Assembly: GCA_046483495.1 (NCBI GenBank)
Contig: JAWODC010000083.1
Span: 1-27,590, forward strand
Length of the DNA: 27,590 bases
Direction: 5' to 3'
Source: Desulfobacterales bacterium
GTDB lineage: Bacteria > Desulfobacterota > Desulfobacteria > Desulfobacterales > UBA5616
The translations under genes were made by a program, and so were the position numbers. Each line of letters opens with the position of its first letter. The first letter of the stretch is position 1. This document shows, piece after piece, positions 8,960 to 20,237 of the stretch. The notes below the pieces were generated by a model. The model did not search any database. It worked only from the letters and a program-made list of their open reading frames with translations, and was not told the DNA's origin.

Positions 8960-9397
8960 TCAGGGATTCGGCTTGCCTACTGCCAGCCGGTCGAGGATAA
9001 GCCCATGGAACCGGCTTTCTTCCGTGGCGATAAACAGCCATCCCAGGTGGGTCATACACGTGCCGCAATACGCAATTCTCCAGCCGAATCCTTTGAACCA
9101 TGTAAATTCTTCCGTCAAAGGTCCCTGATAAGCGCATCCGAAGGCCGCTCTGAAACACCCGATTTCAAATACAATGCCGTGCGGATTGGCGAATGTATGC
9201 GAATGAGCGCCGTTTACGGAAATGCGGGCTGCGTCCGTAGTGATACTGCGGCCGCATTGGGCGCATACGATCACCTCTCCGTCATCTGAGAGCGCCGGTT
9301 CGGCTTGCTCCCCGGTGGAAGGGTCGCCGACGGATACATCCGGCTTTACCGGAGATTCCCGAAGATAAAAAGCGGTGTAGGCGAGGCCGTTCATCAC
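8960..9397 (-). CDS. Bacterial cereblon-family (CULT / thalidomide-binding domain) protein
   Basis: Zinc pairs CAQC and CGTC, NPHG, and the tri-tryptophan cage motifs FTWFKGFGW and HLGWLF. Confidence 0.9.
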   Translation of the reverse strand: MMNGLAYTAFYLRESPVKPDVSVGDPSTGEQAEPALSDDGEVIVCAQCGRSITTDAARISVNGAHSHTFANPHGIVFEIGCFRAAFGCAYQGPLTEEFTWFKGFGWRIAYCGTCMTHLGWLFIATEESRFHGLILDRLAVGKPNP

Positions 9398-9594: not shown

Positions 9595-10407
9595 ATGGAA
9601 TTCACCGGCACGACCACGGCGGTTCTTGCCGTCTTTTTCATTGCCATGCTGATCAAATCCATTTTCGGATTCGGTGATGCCCTGTTGGCCATGCCGCTGC
9701 TCACATTGGCTGTGGGCATCAGGACGGCTACTCCTCTGTTTGCACTGGTCGGCACGACGATTACGCTGGTCATCCTGTCGCTGAGGTGGCGCCATGTCGT
9801 ACTGAAAAGCGCCTGGCGCCTGATCCTGTCATCGATTTTCGGCATCCCGCTGGGGCTGTATTTTTTAAAGGGCTCCTTTGAAACGGCCGTCAACCTGGTG
9901 TTGGCCCTGGTGATCATCCTTTTCTCGGCATTCAATTTGACGCGTCCGAATCTGCCCCGGTTGAACAGCGAGCGCTACGCGGTTGTGTTCGGCTTCATAT
10001 CCGGCATTCTCGGGGGCGCATACAACACGTCAGGCCCGCCGGTCATCATTTACAGCGCCTTGAGGCGCTGGCGGCCCGAATCCATACTGGCAACCCTCCA
10101 AGGATATTTTTTTCCGCTTGGGATTTTCATTCTGATCGGTCATGCGTTGACAGGTTTGTGGACATCCACGGTGGTTGAATATTATGTGATCTGCCTTCCC
10201 GTTTCCCTGGCGGCGCTTGCCGTCGGCAGCCGCCTCAATCGCGCGATACCCCAGGGCAGGTTCGAAAAATATATTTTCGTACTGCTGTTGTTCATTGGAT
10301 TTTTTCTGCTGATGCAGACGCTTCTGACGCAAACGGCTTCCGCCCAATCCTTTTCAGATGCCATTGTGCGTAACCATTGTTCAAGATTCTTTGCTTTTTC
10401 AGCATGA
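9595..10407 (+). CDS. TauE/SafE-family membrane transporter
   Basis: About eight TM helices with FGFG near the N-terminus, GIPLG, and GILGGAYNTSGPP. Confidence 0.88.
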   Translation: MEFTGTTTAVLAVFFIAMLIKSIFGFGDALLAMPLLTLAVGIRTATPLFALVGTTITLVILSLRWRHVVLKSAWRLILSSIFGIPLGLYFLKGSFETAVNLVLALVIILFSAFNLTRPNLPRLNSERYAVVFGFISGILGGAYNTSGPPVIIYSALRRWRPESILATLQGYFFPLGIFILIGHALTGLWTSTVVEYYVICLPVSLAALAVGSRLNRAIPQGRFEKYIFVLLLFIGFFLLMQTLLTQTASAQSFSDAIVRNHCSRFFAFSA

Positions 10408-10436: not shown

Positions 10437-11543
10437 ATGATCATGACCAATTCCAATTTCCTGGATGAAGATCAACCCTACCGCCTGCTGGACGGCGCGA
10501 CCGGCGAAGCGCTGGCTGTCTACCGGGAAATGGCGCACCTTCGAAAGATCGCCGGTGATCCGGCCGTTTCTCTTGAAACGCGGCTGGATGCGTTTGAAGA
10601 TATCCTGGATTCCGAAATCGGTGACACGTCCCTGATCCGGGGCCGGAATATCGAAAGGGAAATCGGCATTCGGCAGGTCTACCTTAAGTTCGAAGGCGGC
10701 AACCCGACGGGCACCCAAAAAGACCGGATCGCCTTTGCCCAGGCCCTGGATGCCATGAGGAGACGTTTCGACTTCATCACCGTGGCCACTTGCGGAAATT
10801 ACGGAGTGGCACTGAGCCTGGCCTCATCTTTGGCGGGATTGGGGTGCATCATTTTCATTCCTCAAAATTACCATTCCAAACGGATAAAAGAAATGAAGGA
10901 CCTGGGCGCCGAGGTGATCCGAACACCCGGCGATTACGAATCCGCCGTAACGATTTCTAAAGAAACAGCCCTGAAAAAAGAGTACTATGACGCCAACCCG
11001 GGGGGCAACAATACGTCTCTGCAATTGCGCAGTTACGGCCAGATCGCCTATGAAGTGTATGATGAACTCCGCGATGCTCCCCATGCCGTTGCCGTGCCGG
11101 TTTCCAACGGCACCACACTGGCCGGCATTTACCGGGGCTTTTTAAGCCTGTACCGCCGTGGAAAGACTTCCCGAATGCCCCGTATGGTTGCCGGCTCCTC
11201 GTTCAACAAAAATCCGATCATTCAGGCCTATCTGAAGAACACCCCCACCTGTGAGGACTTGAAACCGCAATCGATCAGGGAAACCCAGATCAATGAGCCC
11301 CTTGTCAATTGGCACGCCATCGACGGCAATCCGGCGCTGGAGGCTATCCGGCAAACAAACGGCTGGGCCGGCAACGCTTCGGACAAAAACATGATCCATT
11401 TCTCCCGGCTGATCCGCGACAAGGAAGGACTCCAGGTGCTTCCCTCCTCCACCGCCGGCCTCATCGGGCTGATCGACAGGCATAAACGTGAAGCCCTGCC
11501 CAATGACCGGTACGTGGTGGTTCTCACCGGGAGGAGATCATGA
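10437..11543 (+). CDS. Threonine-synthase-like fold-type II PLP enzyme, divergent; substrate unknown
   Basis: GDTSL..YLKFEGGNPTGTQKDR (PLP lysine), ATCGNYG, PVSNGTT and C-terminal VLTG. Confidence 0.85.
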   Translation: MIMTNSNFLDEDQPYRLLDGATGEALAVYREMAHLRKIAGDPAVSLETRLDAFEDILDSEIGDTSLIRGRNIEREIGIRQVYLKFEGGNPTGTQKDRIAFAQALDAMRRRFDFITVATCGNYGVALSLASSLAGLGCIIFIPQNYHSKRIKEMKDLGAEVIRTPGDYESAVTISKETALKKEYYDANPGGNNTSLQLRSYGQIAYEVYDELRDAPHAVAVPVSNGTTLAGIYRGFLSLYRRGKTSRMPRMVAGSSFNKNPIIQAYLKNTPTCEDLKPQSIRETQINEPLVNWHAIDGNPALEAIRQTNGWAGNASDKNMIHFSRLIRDKEGLQVLPSSTAGLIGLIDRHKREALPNDRYVVVLTGRRS

Positions 11544-12628
11544 AAAACCTGCCCGATGGAAACGCGGTCGTGTACTGCCAGGGTGCGTTTAACACGCTTT
11601 GCGGAAAAACCGCGCACGGACTTGTCCGCCATACACGCAGGTATCGGGTGACATCGGTCATCGATTCGGAGTATGCAGGCCGGGACGCGGGGGACGTTCT
11701 CGAGAGCGTACCGAACGGTATTGCCTTACTGGCGGACCTGAACCAGGCGCTCGAATACGCGAAACAATCGGGATTTCCGGCCACCCATTTTGTGGTTGGC
11801 CTTGCGCCCGACGGCGGGCGGTTGAGCGCTTCGGCGCGAAATGATGTGCTTCGCGCCGTCGAATCCGGTTTGAATGTCGACTGCGGACTGCACGATTACC
11901 TTTCCGAGGACCCGGAAATCGCTTCGGCGGCAAAAAAGGCCGGCGTCGCCATCCGTGATATTCGAAAGCCTCCCCATACGCGGTCCCTCCATTTTTTCAC
12001 CGGAAAAATAGAGGCGGTAACATCCTTTAAAATCGCGGTCTTAGGATCGGATTCCGCTATCGGCAAACGGACGACCGCATGGATTTTGCTGAATGCACTC
12101 GAAAAAAGGGGATTGTGCTCCGAAATGATCGGAACCGGGCAGACCGCATGGATGCAGGGTGCGACATACGGGGTCATTCTCGATGCGCTGGCAAATGACT
12201 TTGTCACCGGAGAAATCGAGCACGCCGTATGGTCCGCCTGGCAAGGCTCACACCCCGATGTGATCATCATCGAAGGCCAGGGGGGAATCATGAACCCGGC
12301 CTATCCCGGCGGGTTCGAAATTCTGGCAGCCGGCCGACCGGATGCCGTGATATTTCAGCATGCACCGAATCGAACGGAATACGATGGTTTTCCCGGGTAT
12401 GCAATGCGGCCGCTGTCCGACCAGATTCGGCTTGTCGAATTGCTGTGCGGAAAACCGGTTGCCGCGATCACCCTTAACCACGAGGGATTTGAACCGCAGG
12501 ATGTCCCGCTGGTATGCCGCACACTTGAAAATACCCTCAGCCTGCCGGTTTACGATGTGCTGTTGGACCATGGGGAACCGTTGGGCGACCGCTTAACAAC
12601 CCTGATCCAAAGACGCATGCAATCCTGA
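11540..12628 (+). CDS. DUF1611-domain protein (DgcN-like N-acetyltransferase family)
   Basis: GKTAHGLVR, GLH, P-loop-like GSDSAIGKRTT, TGQT and IEGQG motifs. ATGA overlap with the upstream gene. Confidence 0.88.
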   Translation: MKNLPDGNAVVYCQGAFNTLCGKTAHGLVRHTRRYRVTSVIDSEYAGRDAGDVLESVPNGIALLADLNQALEYAKQSGFPATHFVVGLAPDGGRLSASARNDVLRAVESGLNVDCGLHDYLSEDPEIASAAKKAGVAIRDIRKPPHTRSLHFFTGKIEAVTSFKIAVLGSDSAIGKRTTAWILLNALEKRGLCSEMIGTGQTAWMQGATYGVILDALANDFVTGEIEHAVWSAWQGSHPDVIIIEGQGGIMNPAYPGGFEILAAGRPDAVIFQHAPNRTEYDGFPGYAMRPLSDQIRLVELLCGKPVAAITLNHEGFEPQDVPLVCRTLENTLSLPVYDVLLDHGEPLGDRLTTLIQRRMQS

Positions 12629-15024
12629 TGAAACGAACGTCCGGCATGAATAACATCCAGGAAAAAACCCATCCGATGGACAGCCCTGATCCGCTGGAAG
12701 CGCTCAAGGTCTTCGATCGGCTCGAGGTCGGCCCCATTCGTCTCGAATCCAAACGCTTCACTGCACCCTACCGCCTGTTTCGGGACGGACGGGAAGAGAG
12801 CACCCGGCTGATTTACAGCTATGAAGAACCGGTGTTCGATCCTTCGGAACCCGAATCCTGGAACCTGGCATGCATGATCGCCGTTCAGGCGGCACTGAAT
12901 TACGGCCTTTTCTGCCGCAGCATGGTTTTTCACGGGGTTTTCGACCTGACGGACCGCCGGTTTCTGATCGATATGATGGAGAATACGGCCCGGGAGATTT
13001 TCGTCAATAAATGTGTTCTGCCAAATCCTTTTCTAATCGGTAAAGCAGCCGGTTTGCCGGTAATTAAAAAAAAGCGATACACCGGGGGCACCCTGACCTT
13101 TTCAGATGCGGGCCCCTTTACGGCAAAACCGGCATGGCGTTTTTGTCACACCCGGCGCGATCGACTCTGCGTTCTCTCCAGCGGTGGAAAGGACAGCCTT
13201 TTAACATTCGGTCTGCTCCATGAGATCGGCCGGGATGTCCATCCGATCTTCGTCAACGAATCGGGCCGCCACTGGTTTACCGCCATCAATGCCTATCGGC
13301 ATTTTAAAAAAACGTTCCCCTCCACCGCCAGGGTCTGGACGAACAGCGATCGGCTGTTCAACTGGATGCTCCGGCGGATGCCTTTCATCCGGCAAGACTA
13401 CACCCGCATGCGTTCGGATGCCTATCCGGTCCGGTTGTGGACAGTGGCGGTTTTCATTTTCGGGGTCCTGCCGCTCATGCGCAAACGGGAGATCGGCCGG
13501 CTGGTGATCGGAGACGAATACGATTCGACCGTTCGAAGAAACGAAAAAGGGATTCCGCATTACAACGGCCTTTATGATCAAAGCATTTTTTTTGACAACG
13601 CGCTCAGCCGGTTTTTCTTTAGAAAAGGGTGGTCCATCAGCCAGTTTTCGATACTGCGCCCCCTTTCGGAGCTCCTGATTGAAAAAATGCTCTACGAACG
13701 ATACCCGGAGCTCCAGCAGCATCAAATGTCGTGCCACGCCGCACATGCGGGTCCTCAGAGCATGCTTCCCTGCGGCCGGTGCGAAAAATGCCGTCGAATC
13801 ATATCCATGTTGACCGCCATAGGCGCCGACCCCCGGCGATGCGGTTATACGGATGACCACATCGACCGTTTCCTCCGGCGGCCTGTATTGGAAGATTTAC
13901 ATCAGGAAAAGGCCGCCATAGAACACCTTTCCGCAATGCTGGCTCAGAAAAATATCCCGATCGATTCCGACCGAATAAAGATCCGCTTTTCCGAACATCC
14001 CGAACTGATGAAGCTGAGGTTCCATCCGGTGAACTCTCCCGTCACGGCCATACCTGTAGACCTGAGGCTGTCGTTGTACACGCTCATACTTGACCATGCG
14101 GCCGGCGCGGTTCGCCGTGTCGGTTCCCGTTGGATTGCATGCAACCCGTATGCAGATCCTGAATTCAATCAGGCGTATGTTTTCGAAGTTGACGGCACAA
14201 AACCGGCCGCATCACGGGAAAAAGCATCCGCATTGCCGCACAGCAACGGATGGCTATGGGAGGAACTGACCTGGCCTGAGGTGAGAGACCACATCCAAAA
14301 AACGGATGTGGCGTTGCTGCCCGTGGGGGCCATAGAGCAGCACGGCCCCCATCTTCCCGTAGATACGGATGCGTTCGATGCCCGATATCTGGCCCGTCGC
14401 GTTGCCGCAGCGTGCAGTGAACCCCGTCCCTTGGTACTGCCCCTGGTGCCTTATGGGGTTTCTTACCATCACGACGCGTTTCCGGGAACGCTCAGCATTT
14501 CGAATGAAACATTGTACCGGGTTGTCTATGAAATCGGTATGGCGGCCGCCCGAAACGGCATCAAAAAATTGATTATCATCAACGGTCACGGCGGAAACGC
14601 CCCTGCCTTGAATCAGGCGGCCCAAACCATCAACCGCGATGCCCGTATTTTTGTGTGTGTCGATTCCGGCGAAACCAGTGATACGGATATCGATGAATTG
14701 ATCACGACACCCAACGATGTTCATGCCGGGGAAATGGAAACAAGCACCAGCCTTGCCGTTCGGCCGCACCTCGTCAAGATGGCATATGCCCGGGCATCCA
14801 TTCCACGGTTTTCGAGCCGGTATTTAAATTTCAGCTCAAAGCGAAGTGTATCGTGGTACGGGTTTACCCATAAGATTTCCGATGTGGGAATCATGGGAAA
14901 TCCCTGGAATGCAAGTGCGGAAAAAGGGTCTAAAATCTGGGAAATCATGATCGCTCATCTCGTTTCCCTGGTGGAAGATGTAAGGCCCATGACCCTGGAC
15001 GAAATACATCACCGGAAACCGTAA
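12628..15024 (+). CDS. Fusion of an N-terminal PP-loop ATPase (MurL/QueC-like, Cys-rich) and a C-terminal creatininase-family amidohydrolase
   Basis: N-terminal domain: SGGKDS PP-loop (13180-13197), FSILRPLSEL, SCH...CGRCEKC (13729-13791). C-terminal domain from about 14251: LLPVGAIEQHGPHLP, NGHGGN, HAGEMETS, G.MGNP..ASAEKG. One uninterrupted 798-aa frame. Confidence 0.85.
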   Translation: MKRTSGMNNIQEKTHPMDSPDPLEALKVFDRLEVGPIRLESKRFTAPYRLFRDGREESTRLIYSYEEPVFDPSEPESWNLACMIAVQAALNYGLFCRSMVFHGVFDLTDRRFLIDMMENTAREIFVNKCVLPNPFLIGKAAGLPVIKKKRYTGGTLTFSDAGPFTAKPAWRFCHTRRDRLCVLSSGGKDSLLTFGLLHEIGRDVHPIFVNESGRHWFTAINAYRHFKKTFPSTARVWTNSDRLFNWMLRRMPFIRQDYTRMRSDAYPVRLWTVAVFIFGVLPLMRKREIGRLVIGDEYDSTVRRNEKGIPHYNGLYDQSIFFDNALSRFFFRKGWSISQFSILRPLSELLIEKMLYERYPELQQHQMSCHAAHAGPQSMLPCGRCEKCRRIISMLTAIGADPRRCGYTDDHIDRFLRRPVLEDLHQEKAAIEHLSAMLAQKNIPIDSDRIKIRFSEHPELMKLRFHPVNSPVTAIPVDLRLSLYTLILDHAAGAVRRVGSRWIACNPYADPEFNQAYVFEVDGTKPAASREKASALPHSNGWLWEELTWPEVRDHIQKTDVALLPVGAIEQHGPHLPVDTDAFDARYLARRVAAACSEPRPLVLPLVPYGVSYHHDAFPGTLSISNETLYRVVYEIGMAAARNGIKKLIIINGHGGNAPALNQAAQTINRDARIFVCVDSGETSDTDIDELITTPNDVHAGEMETSTSLAVRPHLVKMAYARASIPRFSSRYLNFSSKRSVSWYGFTHKISDVGIMGNPWNASAEKGSKIWEIMIAHLVSLVEDVRPMTLDEIHHRKP

Positions 15025-15026
15025 CC

Positions 15027-16094
15027 ATGAAAATCCGGTCGATCGACGCTTGGGCGGTAACCATGCCGCTGTCCGAGCCGTACACGATTGCCTACGAAAC
15101 GGTGGCATCCACCACCAATGTTTTTCTGCGCATTCAAACCGATGGGCCGCTCACCGGCTACGGGTGCGCTGCGCCGGATGAAAAAATCAGCCGTGAAACA
15201 CCCGATGATGTTCTCGATGCGTGCCGGCGGATTATCGAACCCCTTTTGAAAGGGGCCGATCCCCTGAGAATTTCATACCTCTTGGAAAAACCGGCGTCGA
15301 ACCTTACATCAAGGCCGTCCTGCCGGGCCATGGTGGACATGGCGCTATATGATATATTGGGCAAACGGTCGAACCTGCCGTTGTACATCCTTTTGGGAGG
15401 GTACCGCACCCATATGCTCACCAGCATCACCATCGGCATTATGCCGCTGGAAAAAACGGTTCAAGCTGCGCGCCGCCATGTTTCGGCCGGGTTCAAGGCC
15501 TTGAAAATAAAAGGGGGAAAGGATCCGGATGCGGATATTGAAAAGGTTATTCGCATCCGAGAGGCGGTCGGCAAGCGCATTGAATTACGGTTCGATGCCA
15601 ACCAGGGGTATTCGGAACACGAGGCGGTCCGGTTTGTTGAAATGACCCGGCGGGCCCGTGTGGAACTGCTTGAACAGCCCACACCCCGGTATGCGCACGA
15701 TGTTTTAGGCCGGGTTACCGACGGGGTTTCGATTCCGGTGATGGCTGACGAGAGCCTGATCGACCTGACGGATGCATTCAAGCTGGCGAAAAACAACGTC
15801 GTGGATATGGTCAACATCAAGCTCATGAAAGTCGGCGGCATACATGAAGCCATGCGCATCAACGCGGTTGCACGAGCGGCCGGGCTGGAAGCCATGGTAG
15901 GCTGCATGGACGAAGCCGCCCTTTCCATCGCTGCAGGCCTTCATTTTGCGCTGGCCCGGCCGAACGTGGCGTATGCGGATCTGGACGGTCATTTGGACCT
16001 CTTGAACGATCCCTCGACAGGGGCGGTGATTCTGAAAAAAGGCACCCTTTACCCCACGGGAAAACCGGGACTCGGGTTCGATCCGGTGTGTTGA
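15027..16094 (+). CDS. Enolase-superfamily dipeptide epimerase / N-acyl amino acid racemase (L-Ala-D/L-Glu epimerase, DgcA-like)
   Basis: KIK catalytic motif, metal ligands in DANQG, EQP and ADES, second base in NIKLMKVGG, and the DLD motif of dipeptide epimerases. Confidence 0.9.
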   Translation: MKIRSIDAWAVTMPLSEPYTIAYETVASTTNVFLRIQTDGPLTGYGCAAPDEKISRETPDDVLDACRRIIEPLLKGADPLRISYLLEKPASNLTSRPSCRAMVDMALYDILGKRSNLPLYILLGGYRTHMLTSITIGIMPLEKTVQAARRHVSAGFKALKIKGGKDPDADIEKVIRIREAVGKRIELRFDANQGYSEHEAVRFVEMTRRARVELLEQPTPRYAHDVLGRVTDGVSIPVMADESLIDLTDAFKLAKNNVVDMVNIKLMKVGGIHEAMRINAVARAAGLEAMVGCMDEAALSIAAGLHFALARPNVAYADLDGHLDLLNDPSTGAVILKKGTLYPTGKPGLGFDPVC

Positions 16095-16143: not shown

Positions 16144-17793
16144 CTAATCGTTTTCCCCCCGTATTGCGGCGAGCAAACGATCCGTGTTTCCGCTTTTCGA
16201 GCGATAGGCCGATGCACCGGCAGCCAGCATATCCATGGATTTCTCATCCTCGTCATACATCGATAAGCCGATGATGCGAATGTGGGGAAACATCGAGTGT
16301 ATGATATGCGTCGCTTCGATCCCGTTCATCATGGGCATATTGACATCCATCAGAACCACGTCCGGAAGCCGTTCCCGGGTTACATCAACGGCTTCCTTCC
16401 CATCCGAGGCTTCCCCGATGATCGTTATGTCGGGTTGAAGGCCGAGCATTCCGGACAGCCCCTGCCTCATCACGGGATGATCGTCAACCAGCAGCACCTT
16501 TATTTTTTCGGAGTCGGGCGGGACCGCCGGCGGCGCTTCCTGGAAGGTTCGCGGCCATTCCGGTAGCTTCTTTTCATGCGTTGCCCTCTCCAGCGGGACG
16601 ACCATCGCGATCGTGGAACCCGAACCGGGCGAGCTGTCGATCTCGAGCCGGCCGCCAAGGTGCAGCAGCCGTTCATTGATGCTGAACAGCCCGAACTTCT
16701 TTCCGGAACCGATTTTTTTCCCCATCCTTTCGGGATCGAATCCCCGACCGGCGTCGCTGACGGCTATCCGCAATTCACCGTTTTCATAGATCGTCGCTAT
16801 GGAAGCCGAATGGACTTCGGCATGTTTGAGCACATTCAGCAGCAGCTCCCGCGTGGACTGGAAGAGTAGAATGGTGAGGTCCTTACGGTCCAGAACGATG
16901 TCGTCTTCGATGTGCAGGTCCACATCAAGGCCTTGATTCTCGCGCACCCACCGGGCCAGCCACCCCAATGACATGGAAAAGTTGTTGGATTTAAGGACGG
17001 ATGGGGACAATTCCGTGGAAAGCGAGCGGGAAGTGGATAATGACTGGTTAACCAGATCCAGCACCCGTTCGGCGATCGGTTTCAGCCCGTTTTCCACGTT
17101 GGAGACAAGGGTTTCCTGCCCTATTTTGGCTCCGACGATCAACTGCTGAAGATGATCATGCAGAATTTCAGCAATCCGGTCCCGCTCCTGCTGTTCGGCC
17201 AGCGTCAGCTCGGAAGACAGTCGTGACAGCTGCCGGGCGCGGCGTTCGAGTTCGATATTCTTTTCGTGAAGCGCCTCGGCGTGCTGCTTCTGTACGCTCA
17301 AATCGGAGACGATCGTACATAACGACCTCGCCTCATCCGTGATCATTGACCGCATGGAGAGAAGAACCGGCAGCCTGTTTCCGTCCTGCTGTCGGACGGT
17401 TAATTCCTCCCGAATGTTTTCGGCGAAAGCCCGGTTGAAAAGCGCCTCGAAACGGTCTTTTTCATCCGAATCGATAAAATCGGTGACCTTTCTGCTCATG
17501 ACATTTTCAATGGGGGTTTTCGCCATTTCAGAGAATCGTCCGTTGCAGTAGAGAATGGTCCCGTCCTCATCCAGGATCAGCGCCCCCTCATTGATGGTCT
17601 CGATCAGCACCCGGTAATTGTAGTCCGCCCCTTTGAGCGTGTAAACGCGGTCCCCGGCGGGGTCGGAGATCATGAGCGCATCCACGCTTCCTTCGCGAAT
17701 GGCCTCGAGAATTTCTTCGGATTCGGCCAACCGTCGACGCAATTGGGAAAGTTCTTCGGGGAATGCTTTTTCGGCGTTTATCTGTTTTTTCAT
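16144..17793 (-). CDS. Cytoplasmic hybrid histidine kinase: PAS, HisKA_3/HATPase and receiver domains; kai-associated
   Basis: N-terminal coiled coil with AIREGSVDAL..VYTLKGADYNYR, PAS domain, ERDRIAEILHDHLQQ H-box, ELLLNVLKHA, DAGRG, FGL, and a C-terminal receiver (LLVDDH..LMDVNMP). No TM segments. Confidence 0.9.
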   Translation of the reverse strand: MKKQINAEKAFPEELSQLRRRLAESEEILEAIREGSVDALMISDPAGDRVYTLKGADYNYRVLIETINEGALILDEDGTILYCNGRFSEMAKTPIENVMSRKVTDFIDSDEKDRFEALFNRAFAENIREELTVRQQDGNRLPVLLSMRSMITDEARSLCTIVSDLSVQKQHAEALHEKNIELERRARQLSRLSSELTLAEQQERDRIAEILHDHLQQLIVGAKIGQETLVSNVENGLKPIAERVLDLVNQSLSTSRSLSTELSPSVLKSNNFSMSLGWLARWVRENQGLDVDLHIEDDIVLDRKDLTILLFQSTRELLLNVLKHAEVHSASIATIYENGELRIAVSDAGRGFDPERMGKKIGSGKKFGLFSINERLLHLGGRLEIDSSPGSGSTIAMVVPLERATHEKKLPEWPRTFQEAPPAVPPDSEKIKVLLVDDHPVMRQGLSGMLGLQPDITIIGEASDGKEAVDVTRERLPDVVLMDVNMPMMNGIEATHIIHSMFPHIRIIGLSMYDEDEKSMDMLAAGASAYRSKSGNTDRLLAAIRGEND

Positions 17794-17812
17794 GTGCGCG
17801 TGAATATGCAGG

Positions 17813-18181
17813 TTACTGCTTTTTTACCGCATCCGATTCTTTATTTACGATATCCAGGCTCAGCAGGACTTTTTCGCGGTCCGATAGATCACCGATGATC
17901 TTTCGAAGGGGCAGCGGCAGCTGTTTGATCAGGGTGGGCGCGGCGATCACCTGATCGTGTTTTCCCTTTTCAGGCTGCTGATAGAGGTCAATCACTTCCA
18001 GCTCGAAACGCCCCTTGAGATGCTCCTGACATATTTTCTTAAGGTTTTGAATGGCCTTGATCGATTTCGGGGTCATTCCGCTCACGTACAAACGGAGTAT
18101 GTACGTCTTGTTTTCAGCCCCTTTCAAAGCCTTTTCAAATGCTTCCGTCGAATCTTCAATCTTTGTGTTTTTTTTCATCAT
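17813..18181 (-). CDS. kaiB: KaiB-family protein with N-terminal extension
   Basis: [42 protein letters not shown]. Confidence 0.93.
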   Translation of the reverse strand: MMKKNTKIEDSTEAFEKALKGAENKTYILRLYVSGMTPKSIKAIQNLKKICQEHLKGRFELEVIDLYQQPEKGKHDQVIAAPTLIKQLPLPLRKIIGDLSDREKVLLSLDIVNKESDAVKKQ

Positions 18182-18207
18182 CGAGCCCTGAGACAGCTTT
18201 CCGCTCG

Positions 18208-18498
18208 TCAGTGTGGACGCAAGTCCAACCCCACCAAAACGCGTTCGGTATTCGACAAATCGCCGATAATCTTGCGAAGCGGCTGGGGGAGTTTGCGCAC
18301 CAGCGTAGGTATGGCAAGGATCTGGTCGCCTTTTGCCAGCTGCGGATTTTCGAGCAGGTCGATCACCACGATTCGGTACCGTCCCTGAAGATATTCCTCG
18401 CAGATTTTTTTCAGATTCGAAAACGCCTGCAATGATTTCGGCGTCTGGCCGGCGACATAGAGCCGCAAATCAAAGTATTCCGTGTCCGAATTGTTCAT
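18208..18498 (-). CDS. kaiB: KaiB-family protein
   Basis: [49 protein letters not shown]. Overlaps the kaiC stop by 4 nt. Confidence 0.95.
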
Positions 18499-20237
18499 GT
18501 GTCTTTACCTTCGATTCGGGTTTCAGCGTTATCCGCCATGCGGCGCCATGACACTTTGTTCCGCTGCTCTTTTTCGATAATATCCCTCTTTTCATGCAGA
18601 TGAAGCGTCTGGTCCATTTCGTCCTGTTCGGCCTTAAGCTGCGCCCGCAAGTTCTCGATGCGGCTTTCCAATAGTCGCCGTCTGCCCTCGTATTCCCGTA
18701 TTTTGCGATCCATTTTTCGTTGATTTTCGAGCGATTCGGCCTCCTCCAACGCCTGCTGAGCGATACGGGCGGAACCGGTGAGAACGCCTTGCGGACCGGT
18801 GTACACATCCAGTAAATTCACTCCGGAATCGGTCAGCAAAAACTCCCGGATCTGGTTGGAGTGCGCCATTCCCCTTGATTTGATAATATACAGGCCGCGG
18901 TTGCGCTCACCGCTGCTTTCGATTTCATTCAGCATAATCCAGGTGTCCATAAGCGATGAAACACCGACAGCGGTTTCCGCCTCTTCCGCTCGGCTGATGC
19001 TGAGACTCGTAAAAAGGGAGGTGATCATCCGGCTCTTCAGCAGGTCCACCAGGCGCATGAGAACGGCCTTGACATCCTGGGGATTCCCCGCGGATATGAG
19101 ATTGGAAACCGGGTCCAGAATGATTGCCGCGGGTGAAAAGTCGTTGACCATTTTATACATCCCGACCAGATGCATCTCGAGTCCCTCCGACGTGGGCCGG
19201 ACATTGTGGAAATGCAAGAGGCCCTTTTTCACCCACTGCGTAAGATCAGTGCCGATGGATCTCATGTTCCTTATAATCTGTTCACTGGACTCTTCAAAGG
19301 CATAATACAGGCATCGTTCACCGTCCCGGCAGGTTTGATCGGCGAAACAAGCGGAAATGCTCGTCTTTCCTGTTCCCGCAGTACCGGAAACCAGCACACT
19401 GCTTCCCCGGTAAAAACCGCCGCCGAACATCGTATCCAACCGGGGAATACCGGTGGATATGCGCTCGGAGGAGACCGGGTAATCCAGGCTCACCGACGTG
19501 ATGGGCAGCACCGACAGCCCTCCGTCGTCGATCAGGAAGGGGTATTCGTTCGTTCCGTGACTCGAGCCGCGGTACTTGGCCACACGAAGGCGACGGGTGG
19601 AAATCTGGTTTTCGAGCCGGTGGTCCAAAATCACCACGCAGTCGGATACGTATTCTTCGATGCCATGGCGGGTTAGGGATCCCTGCTTTTCCCCCCGCTC
19701 GGCGGTGATAACCGCCGTAATTTTTCTATCCTTCAACCAGCGAAACAGCCGCCGCAGCTCCGCTCTTAGAATAAAGTCACCGACAAAGCCGGAGAAAAGG
19801 GCCTCCAGCGTATCCAGCACCACGCGTTTGGCTCCGATGGCATCGATGGCATGGCCCAACCGGATGAACAGCCCCTCGAGATCGTATTCGCCGGTCTCTT
19901 CGATTTCGGACCGTTCGATATGGATATAGTCGAGGGCGATTTTTTCTTCTTTTTTGAGATCGTTCAGATCGAATCCCAGCGAGGCGAAGTTCGTCACCAG
20001 GTCGGCTTCGGATTCCTCGAAGCTCATGAATACGCCTGGTTCGCCGAACGCGACGGCGCCGTGCACCAGAAACTCCATTCCAAACAGGGTCTTGCCGCTT
20101 CCGGCGCCTCCGGTAACCAGCGTAGGGCGGCCTCTGGGCAAACCGCCCAGGGTGATTTCGTCAAATCCGCGAATACCGGTAACCGCCTTTTTCAACTCGC
20201 CGCTTTCAGACTGAACGGGGGCCGCATCTTTCATCAA
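18495..20237 (-). CDS. kaiC: KaiC double-domain ATPase/autokinase (KaiC2-type)
   Basis: Two Walker A motifs ([16 protein letters not shown]), two FEE motifs, KYRG and KSRG arginine fingers, phosphosite region GVSSLMDTW, and GVLTGSAR followed by a long coiled-coil tail. Confidence 0.96.

Follow-up and report, generated by a model that had tools for sequence, protein, structure and literature searches.

In marine bacteria the Dgc pathway converts D-Glu via N-acetyl-D-Glu to N-acetyl-L-Glu, using the DUF1611 protein DgcN and the enolase-family enzyme DgcA. An excerpt of PMC10845958 mentions this pathway. A different kind of stereo-inversion is described in excerpts of PMC8788868 and PMC5808125 for MurL, which needs ATP and Mg, forms AMP and works only from L to D; adenylation of the alpha-carboxylate of its substrate has been proposed. 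Here we analysed a 27,590-nucleotide stretch from a Desulfobacterales bacterium (assembly GCA_046483495.1, contig JAWODC010000083.1; this window is the entire contig) in which four tightly coupled genes form a five-domain cassette. They encode a pyridoxal phosphate (PLP) enzyme, a DUF1611 protein, a two-domain protein (gene 3) in which a MurL-like domain is joined to a creatininase-family hydrolase, and an enolase-superfamily epimerase (Table 1). A first-pass annotation, made from the letters of the window, had taken the cassette for an expanded Dgc variant and for the best candidate for an undescribed pathway. We found that the cassette is conserved and that it apparently represents an undescribed type of pathway, built around DUF1611-centred acylation and stereo-inversion, which is a member neither of the Dgc nor of the MurL systems.

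Conservation and modularity of the cassette

Thirty-one bacterial loci were collected, 16 from a scan of named contigs (Desulfobacterales, Flavobacteriaceae, Saprospiraceae and Aquimarina are included) and 15 further ones. Twenty-four extended far enough on either side of the MurL-like gene; six were excluded for contig-end cuts (L001, L002, L010, L011, L022, L023) and a seventh, L040, was handled separately. The five domains were found in the order of the window in 20 of the 24. In L007 a second contig of the genome carries the PLP gene together with DUF1611, L014 has no epimerase nearby (best elsewhere in the genome, 38%), and L038 and L039 have no creatininase nearby (best elsewhere, 35-36%). 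Close gene 3 homologues are labelled Desulfobacterales or Deltaproteobacteria, and Aquimarina sp. SS2-1 (L015), whose genome is finished, carries a complete copy. Frameshifts or split open reading frames (ORFs) occur within cassette genes in L004, L009, L012, L016, L035 and L039; those in MFD assemblies may stem from errors of sequencing.

The linkage was also seen in whole genomes. Among 401 genomes of the host's phylum, close matches to the MurL-like domain (52-61%) were found in nine besides the host and weak ones (20-35%) in five more. The model PRK06381, to which the PLP enzyme belongs, was over its cut-off in exactly the ten genomes with close MurL-like matches, and the DUF1611 profile was found in the same ten and in one other (G381). 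These ten genomes are partly kin, and their co-occurrence is given as counts. In 14 control genomes PRK06381 was never over its cut-off. The linkage of the genes is non-random: they occur together elsewhere, in full order in 20 of 24 loci and as a three-family match in 10 of 401 genomes. The distribution is patchy. Three of 30 relatives were positive, and a genome of the same genus (G706, 96% complete) gave no MurL-like, creatininase or epimerase match and no PRK06381 over the cut-off. In the phylum of Aquimarina, 4 of 301 genomes matched, and there was no match to the MurL-like domain among plasmids.

Distant homologues of the MurL-like domain belong to clusters named Thermoplasmatota and Methylomirabilales. 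We called ORFs in an archaeal-type set, the best 80 of 564 metagenome loci, many of them short and mutually related; taxonomy was not supplied with these loci, and their archaeal origin is inferred from neighbours such as deoxyhypusine synthase. The MurL-like domain was found in 79 of the 80, DUF1611 in 73 and the PLP gene in 52, and five loci (L045-L049) had DUF1611 and the MurL-like domain only. From these counts we take DUF1611 and the MurL-like domain, usually with the PLP gene, to be the core of the cassette. The epimerase was present in 31 archaeal-type loci and an M14-like hydrolase in 33, while the creatininase was present in none. The epimerase and M14-like genes were adjacent and mostly on the opposite strand to the core, so hydrolase and epimerase behave as a second module, gained or lost apart from the core. 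No useful PDB match was obtained for the archaeal M14-like protein. Thermoplasmatota are not known to have peptidoglycan, and their homologues weaken the muropeptide role that had been suggested for this locus.

Domain fusions give a similar view of the modules. The creatininase family (PF02633) was present in 119 of the 120 best gene 3 matches, and in three Bacteroidota loci (L013-L015) it is a separate gene. Long DUF1611 proteins (698-2000 residues, n = 31) comprised 23 fusions to a MurL-like domain, five to an ornithine-racemase-like domain and one to an enolase-family epimerase, in the order epimerase::DUF1611; the remaining two had neither. GNAT acetyltransferases adjoin the cassette in L007 (7240-7782), L011 (1691-3309) and L013 (11418-12947) and in 54 of the 80 archaeal-type loci; some stand by themselves, others accompany a deacylase of the ArgE/DapE type or form a fusion with a carbon-nitrogen hydrolase. 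They may be a loose sixth member of the cassette, or may reflect synteny among kin. In L037 (11950-15999) the cassette is preceded on its own strand, at a distance of about 1 kb, by genes for an ATP-grasp protein, a gamma-glutamyltransferase and an N-formylglutamate-deformylase-like protein.

The MurL-related domain and its partner enzymes

The N-terminal ~520 residues of gene 3 (21-520) had no Pfam match. They contain a PP-loop, SSGGKDS (S185-GGKDS), and four cysteines (Cys369, 382, 385 and 388), all nearly invariant across 46 sequences. The MurL model NF041275 was the only NCBIfam model that matched this domain recurrently (28 of 46 homologues, best E 2.1e-7); the window protein matched it at E 2.6e-4 and 19.6 bits, over profile positions 277-341 only. 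In the Atlas, which uses language-model features, MurL clusters made up 27 of 30 feature matches, at up to 0.96 (214 of 256 features). By both approaches, hidden Markov model (HMM) and features, MurL was the nearest named family. The structure of the domain was predicted with a local confidence (pLDDT) of 93.5. Its fold matched Cap9 (9nto; Z 13.3, root-mean-square deviation (rmsd) 2.6, 178 residues aligned) and QueC (Z 12.7, rmsd 3.2, 190 aligned; template-modelling (TM) score 0.69-0.73 by target), and NcsA was among the other solved folds. The top Foldseek match was QatC (9y02; E 4.8e-6, TM-score 0.38). The fold searches barely covered the first 150 residues of the domain.

With Cap9, QueC and QatC the domain shares the SGGxDS PP-loop, the cysteine cluster and the fold. 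It differs from them in its length of ~500 residues, being extended at both its N- and its C-terminal end, and no queuosine or defence genes are adjacent. The Pfam QueC family did not match the window domain and matched only two of the 46 homologues, weakly (best E 3.6e-4). Nor is the domain MurL proper. The 19.6 bits lie far below the cut-off of 700, and the pairing with MurD2 that is typical of MurL is absent, the neighbours being DUF1611 and the epimerase, with no Mur ligase adjacent. MurL goes with racemase-less genomes, whereas the host has a MurI over its cut-off on another contig (C40). The domain also differs from MurL in its homologues in Thermoplasmatota and its fusion to a creatininase-family domain or to DUF1611. 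No protein in the host genome or in 301 genomes was over the MurL cut-off, and the likeness to MurL comes from the profile and the language-model features. There was no MurL entry among the fold-search matches, which excludes nothing. The N-terminal domain is best described as a MurL-related enzyme, predicted to adenylate a carboxylate. The first-pass label "PP-loop" was correct as to the motif, and "MurL-related" describes the domain better.

Two further arrangements of the domain were noted. In one homologue (P0123, 825 residues) it is fused to a class I methyltransferase domain. In addition, there is a stand-alone family of ~453 residues, 47-54% alike (L041:3082-4443, L042:6672-8039, L044:6950-8311), with a changed PP-loop (SFGKDS or TFGKDS), a cysteine cluster and, in one member, a weak MurL match; none of the three genomes gave a DUF1611 match.

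We next compared DUF1611 with its relatives. The window protein scored 135.6 bits against the DgcN model NF041892 (cut-off 480) and was 29% identical to DgcN of Pseudoalteromonas sp. CF6-2 and 44% identical to racemase-linked DUF1611 proteins. It has a P-loop-like motif, GxDSAxGKRT, with Arg after GK. The GxDxxxGK loop of DUF1611 resembles that of dethiobiotin synthase; an ATP-dependent ligase of that type was set aside, as Arg and not Ser/Thr follows GK. DUF1611, a relative of DgcN, is likely to be an acyl-CoA-dependent N-acyltransferase. In a tree of 36 sequences (19 from cassettes, 9 racemase-linked; midpoint root, DgcN on a long branch) the cassette and racemase-linked proteins each fell on one side of a branch (100/98) and were adjacent, with DgcN outside.

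The racemase-linked clade is a system of its own. A gene of the alanine/ornithine-racemase family lies directly downstream of DUF1611 in seven of the eight closest plasmid matches. In G381 (L178:5878-8138) the racemase-like partner scored 359.9 bits against NF040742, under the cut-off of 480. The pair, or its fusion, recurs on Vibrio and roseobacter plasmids (L180, L181, L182, L185). Its DUF1611 is 41-45% identical to that of the cassette, and the partner is directly downstream or a C-terminal fusion. However, this partner is a fold-III PLP racemase, whereas the cassette has an ATP-dependent MurL-like enzyme, and no PRK06381, creatininase or epimerase was seen beside the pair. We know of no characterisation of the pair. 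It is mainly because the MurL-like domain fills the slot of the racemase in this sister clade that we read it as stereo-inverting. In G381 the pair adjoins a MarR regulator, an MlrC-like hydrolase and an ABC transporter that we take, by recognition without a scan, to be of the betaine/proline type.

The epimerase retains its catalytic apparatus: K160, K162, D190, E216, D241, K265, D318 and D320 were invariant in 47 of 47 homologues, including the catalytic bases K162 and K265 and the DLD motif. Its best PDB matches were dipeptide epimerases (3jva, 3rit and 1jpm, B. subtilis YkfB). All named NCBIfam epimerase models were below their cut-offs (DgcA NF042940, 155.2 against 400 bits; NF041118, 227 against 500; PRK15129, 91.5 against 343), and identity to the CF6-2 DgcA was 27%. 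In Ala-Glu epimerase an Arg of the 20s loop binds the Glu side chain. At the position of this Arg in YkfB, 44 of 47 homologues have Glu24, and with D51 and GCM[D/N]E (GCMDE in the window) it makes an acidic pocket, where DgcA has an Arg in the loop and GCMVG. For this reason glutamate should be disfavoured and a basic or neutral side chain favoured. The GCMDE motif is shared with 3rit, which we take to be a cationic-dipeptide epimerase, and which nonetheless has Arg at position 24. The DLD motif does not tell a dipeptide from an N-acyl substrate, since DgcA has it too. With YkfB-type enzymes the epimerase thus shares catalytic lysines, metal ligands and DLD; it differs from them in Glu24, and the cassette has no cell-wall peptidase neighbours. 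Peptidoglycan recycling, according to excerpts of PMC5808125, pairs a dipeptide epimerase with an amide hydrolase, as does the cassette.

The hydrolase domain matched PF02633 at E 4e-71 (239.6 bits). It has the motifs of creatininase and MftE (E-x-H, D, NGHGG, HAGE), and its metal-site residues are E570, H572, D581, H654 and E702; the motifs were kept in 21 homologues. It scored 150.9 bits against MftE (TIGR03964, cut-off 172) and 106.2 against creatininase (TIGR04448, cut-off 235). It is plausible that this domain acts as a deacylase.

These comparisons do not support a Dgc variant acting on D-Glu. Cassette and Dgc locus have in common DUF1611 and an enolase-family enzyme with DLD in one operon, and N-acylation that is likely coupled to stereo-inversion. 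But the cassette adds the MurL-like domain, the PLP enzyme and the hydrolase, its DUF1611 clusters with the racemase-linked clade, and both proteins are distant from their Dgc counterparts in score and identity. Its epimerase has an acidic pocket, with Glu24 in place of the YkfB Arg, and that of DgcA contains Arg. Moreover, dgcN and dgcA are adjacent in CF6-2, whereas in the window the MurL-like gene lies between DUF1611 and the epimerase, and it is with the MurL-like domain, rather than with the enolase-family enzyme, that DUF1611 is constantly paired.

The PLP enzyme scored 429 bits against NF004996 (PRK06381, "threonine synthase"; cut-off 266) and 101.8 bits against TIGR00260, below 167.1. 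Its best fold match was ThrC (2d1f; Z 35.9, rmsd 2.3, 303 aligned), of fold-type II, and its PLP lysine is K95. Three ThrC motifs are changed: GSFKDR to GTQKDR, STGN to TCGN, and the Arg of NPYR, which has a role in phosphate binding in ThrC, to Gln196. ThrC is encoded separately in the host genome, on contig C71 (TIGR00260, 184.5 bits, over the cut-off), and MurI is present as well, so PRK06381 likely marks this cassette and the name "threonine synthase" is likely a misnomer. All 62 of 62 homologues have Cys119, in the motif TCGNY; the aligned residue of threonine synthases is Thr. We presume, from the motif and not from an alignment, that Cys119 matches Ser84 of serine racemase. An excerpt of PMC6424897 gives Ser84 as the proposed re-face base. 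Cys119 therefore suggests chemistry on the second face, which might be racemisation or use of a D-substrate.

A proposed pathway and competing explanations

Our preferred explanation, to which we give slightly less than even weight, is that the cassette makes and recycles an N-acylated D-amino acid with a non-acidic, probably basic side chain. For its synthesis, the PLP enzyme would supply or reshape an amino acid, DUF1611 would N-acylate it from acyl-CoA, as DgcN does, and the MurL-like domain would, by analogy with MurL, adenylate the free carboxylate with ATP and release the product inverted from L to D, together with AMP. For recycling, the epimerase would return the D form to L, and the creatininase-family hydrolase, or the M14-like hydrolase in archaeal-type loci, would strip the acyl group. 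With the steps in the other order, the DUF1611 and racemase-like pair might arrive at a product of this kind. That the product is a stress or osmotic protectant is a guess. Complex prediction for DUF1611 and the MurL-like domain (score 0.00, mark 0.32) gave no evidence either way.

Several observations weigh against this pathway. The MurL match is weak, and the solved folds that match the domain (Cap9, QueC, NcsA) are amide-forming or sulfur-inserting enzymes. In three homologues (P0149, P0165, P0224) the PP-loop is degenerate. In genome G138 (L040:2-3226) a KamA-type aminomutase, a D-Ala-D-Ala-ligase-like ATP-grasp protein and an archaeal-type MurL-like homologue (35%) stand in a row, and neither DUF1611 nor PRK06381 was found in that genome; this context shows that the MurL-like domain could, on its gene neighbours, serve another pathway. 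The PLP enzyme may itself be a racemase through Cys119, which would make an ATP-driven inversion redundant. The fusion of the MurL-like domain to the hydrolase in most close homologues suits consecutive better than opposing steps. No racemase or epimerase is annotated beside DUF1611 in five more distant plasmid matches. Finally, DgcN is D-specific, whereas our pathway requires a DUF1611 that accepts the L form. The altered PP-loop is accompanied in P0165 by altered creatininase metal motifs, and all three proteins are possible pseudo-enzyme paralogues.

The fusions would be better explained by a series of acylation by DUF1611, inversion by the MurL-like domain and deacylation by the hydrolase fused to it, which would free a stereo-inverted amino acid. 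Such a linear route might scavenge environmental D-amino acids, as in the expanded Dgc variant of the first-pass annotation but on a substrate other than Glu, or it might export a D-amino acid. Dipeptides with a D residue would then fall to the epimerase, and deamination or reshaping of the product to the PLP enzyme. The three activities are indeed chained by the DUF1611::MurL-like proteins and by the MurL-like::creatininase arrangement of the best gene 3 matches. In Haloferax, genes for DUF1611, dipeptide epimerase, D-aminoacylase and ABC transporter follow one another, and an amidohydrolase and an M14 gene lie near dgcN-dgcA in CF6-2. We nevertheless consider this route rather unlikely. L038, L039 and L045-L049 lack the hydrolase, which accompanies the epimerase in archaeal-type loci; no transporter was conserved with the cassette in the loci inspected; and for scavenging, a reversible epimerase and a deacylase would be enough without ATP.

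In a second alternative, which we regard as unlikely, the PLP enzyme is the racemase, with Cys119 as second acid-base, DUF1611 N-acylates the product in the manner of DgcN, and the QueC-fold domain acts as an amide ligase, coupling the activated carboxyl either with ammonia or with a second amino acid. The outcome would be an N-acyl amide or dipeptide solute, later degraded by the epimerase and hydrolase. The invariance of Cys119, presumed from the motif to hold the Ser84 position, agrees with this, as do the racemase partner of the sister DUF1611 clade, Cap9 and QueC as best fold matches, the dipeptide epimerases nearest to the epimerase, and the ATP-grasp ligase that joins the domain in G138. 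However, the Thr of threonine synthases at the same position indicates that a small polar residue is no proof of a racemase, the PLP gene is not nearby in the five loci of DUF1611 and MurL-like domain only, and the nearest named family of the domain by HMM and features is the epimerase MurL, not QueC.

It is very improbable that a protein or nucleobase is what the QueC-fold domain modifies, in the manner of the anti-phage proteins Cap9 and QatC, with the other enzymes supplying or removing the group. QatC and Cap9 are the top fold matches and the patchy distribution, with a negative same-genus genome, would fit; but all partners are small-molecule enzyme families, the recurring neighbours include no conserved small partner or effector gene, and the TM-score of QatC is only 0.38. 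A chance cluster of housekeeping paralogues (threonine synthase, D-Glu supply, Ala-Glu recycling, creatinine breakdown), for which the NCBIfam name of gene 1 and its ThrC fold could be cited, is scarcely credible given the changed specificity residues, the exact co-occurrence in the 401-genome sample and the absence of PRK06381 from the control genomes, and a housekeeping ThrC or D-Glu supply role was rejected because ThrC and MurI are encoded elsewhere in the host genome.

Wide co-occurrence and the cover of housekeeping roles by other host genes both uphold the earlier proposal of a conserved, apparently undescribed pathway of DUF1611 and stereochemistry enzymes. No description of the cassette was found in the literature searched, which was mostly without subscription journals and without supplements. 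New here are the three-gene genome profile, the parallel with the racemase pair, the invariant Cys119, the exchange of creatininase for M14 and the exclusion of TauE described below. We also put forward, as a doubtful but distinct possibility, that the widespread MurL-related family carries out ATP-driven one-way inversion of a small N-acyl amino acid outside cell-wall synthesis, in bacteria and wall-less archaea; that it forms, with the DUF1611 and ornithine-racemase-like pair, two convergent routes to an N-acyl-D-amino acid; and that PRK06381 is a new cysteine-dependent class of fold-II PLP enzymes. A small-molecule relative of MurL in bacteria and archaea would extend MurL chemistry beyond peptidoglycan and offer a simpler system for its study. 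If true, the cassette would be a new route in microbial D-amino-acid metabolism and would assign functions to an unnamed family that counts 2,904 proteins or more (90% clustering; distant relatives may be included). It would also correct the curated "threonine synthase" label of PRK06381 (NF004996).

Locus and flanking genes

The ORFs, coordinates, junctions and domains of the first-pass annotation were all reproduced by ORF calling and Pfam (Table 1). The genes are joined by an ATGA overlap at 11540, TGATG at 12626-12630 and a 2-nucleotide gap before 15027, and the G+C content of the operon (0.52-0.58) is similar to that of its flanks.

Table 1. Features of the cassette and of the upstream membrane-protein gene in the window
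Feature	Coordinates	Strand	Description
PLP enzyme gene (gene 1)	10437-11543	+	368 residues, Pfam PALP
DUF1611 gene (gene 2)	11540-12628	+	362 residues, PF07755 + PF17396 (N+C)
Gene 3, two-domain protein	12628-15024	+	798 residues, MurL-like::creatininase
Gene 3, N-terminal domain	12688-14187	+	MurL-related, QueC-fold, without Pfam match
Gene 3, C-terminal domain	14233-15024	+	creatininase-family, Pfam residues 545-782
Enolase-superfamily epimerase gene (gene 4)	15027-16094	+	355 residues, Pfam MR_MLE N+C
TauE/SafE membrane protein	9595-10407	+	PF01925, ends 29 nucleotides before the PLP gene

The 29-nucleotide spacing of tauE, which had been listed with the operon, was confirmed, but its membership of a conserved cassette was ruled out, as a homologue was found in none of the 31 bacterial and none of the 80 archaeal-type loci. 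In this genome tauE is possibly co-transcribed with the cassette. A sigma-70 scan gave two sites where 5.1 were expected, and the two lie on the minus strand. A sigma-54-like pattern precedes the PLP gene in three related loci (L004:5198, L005:4982, L012:5598), two of the sites lying near genes that we read as NtrC-type regulators; it was not matched in the window between 9084 and 13037. Some match to the pattern occurs in 23 of 140 loci, with the chance level uncontrolled, and we conclude nothing from it. Four RNA runs (X1-X4, from two studies, labelled salt lake metagenome) contain short pieces, 99-100% identical, of all four genes and of the next gene, with no piece listed on tauE. These pieces are contigs and may be DNA; they show neither transcription nor its level and were excluded as evidence.

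Upstream, on the minus strand and divergent from tauE, lies a gene for a small Zn-binding protein (8960-9397); it matches Yippee/Mis18 weakly and by eye resembles cereblon. Downstream, at 16144-20237 on the minus strand, genes recognised by eye as encoding a KaiC-like ATPase, two KaiB-like proteins and a PAS/histidine-kinase/receiver hybrid converge on the end of the cassette.

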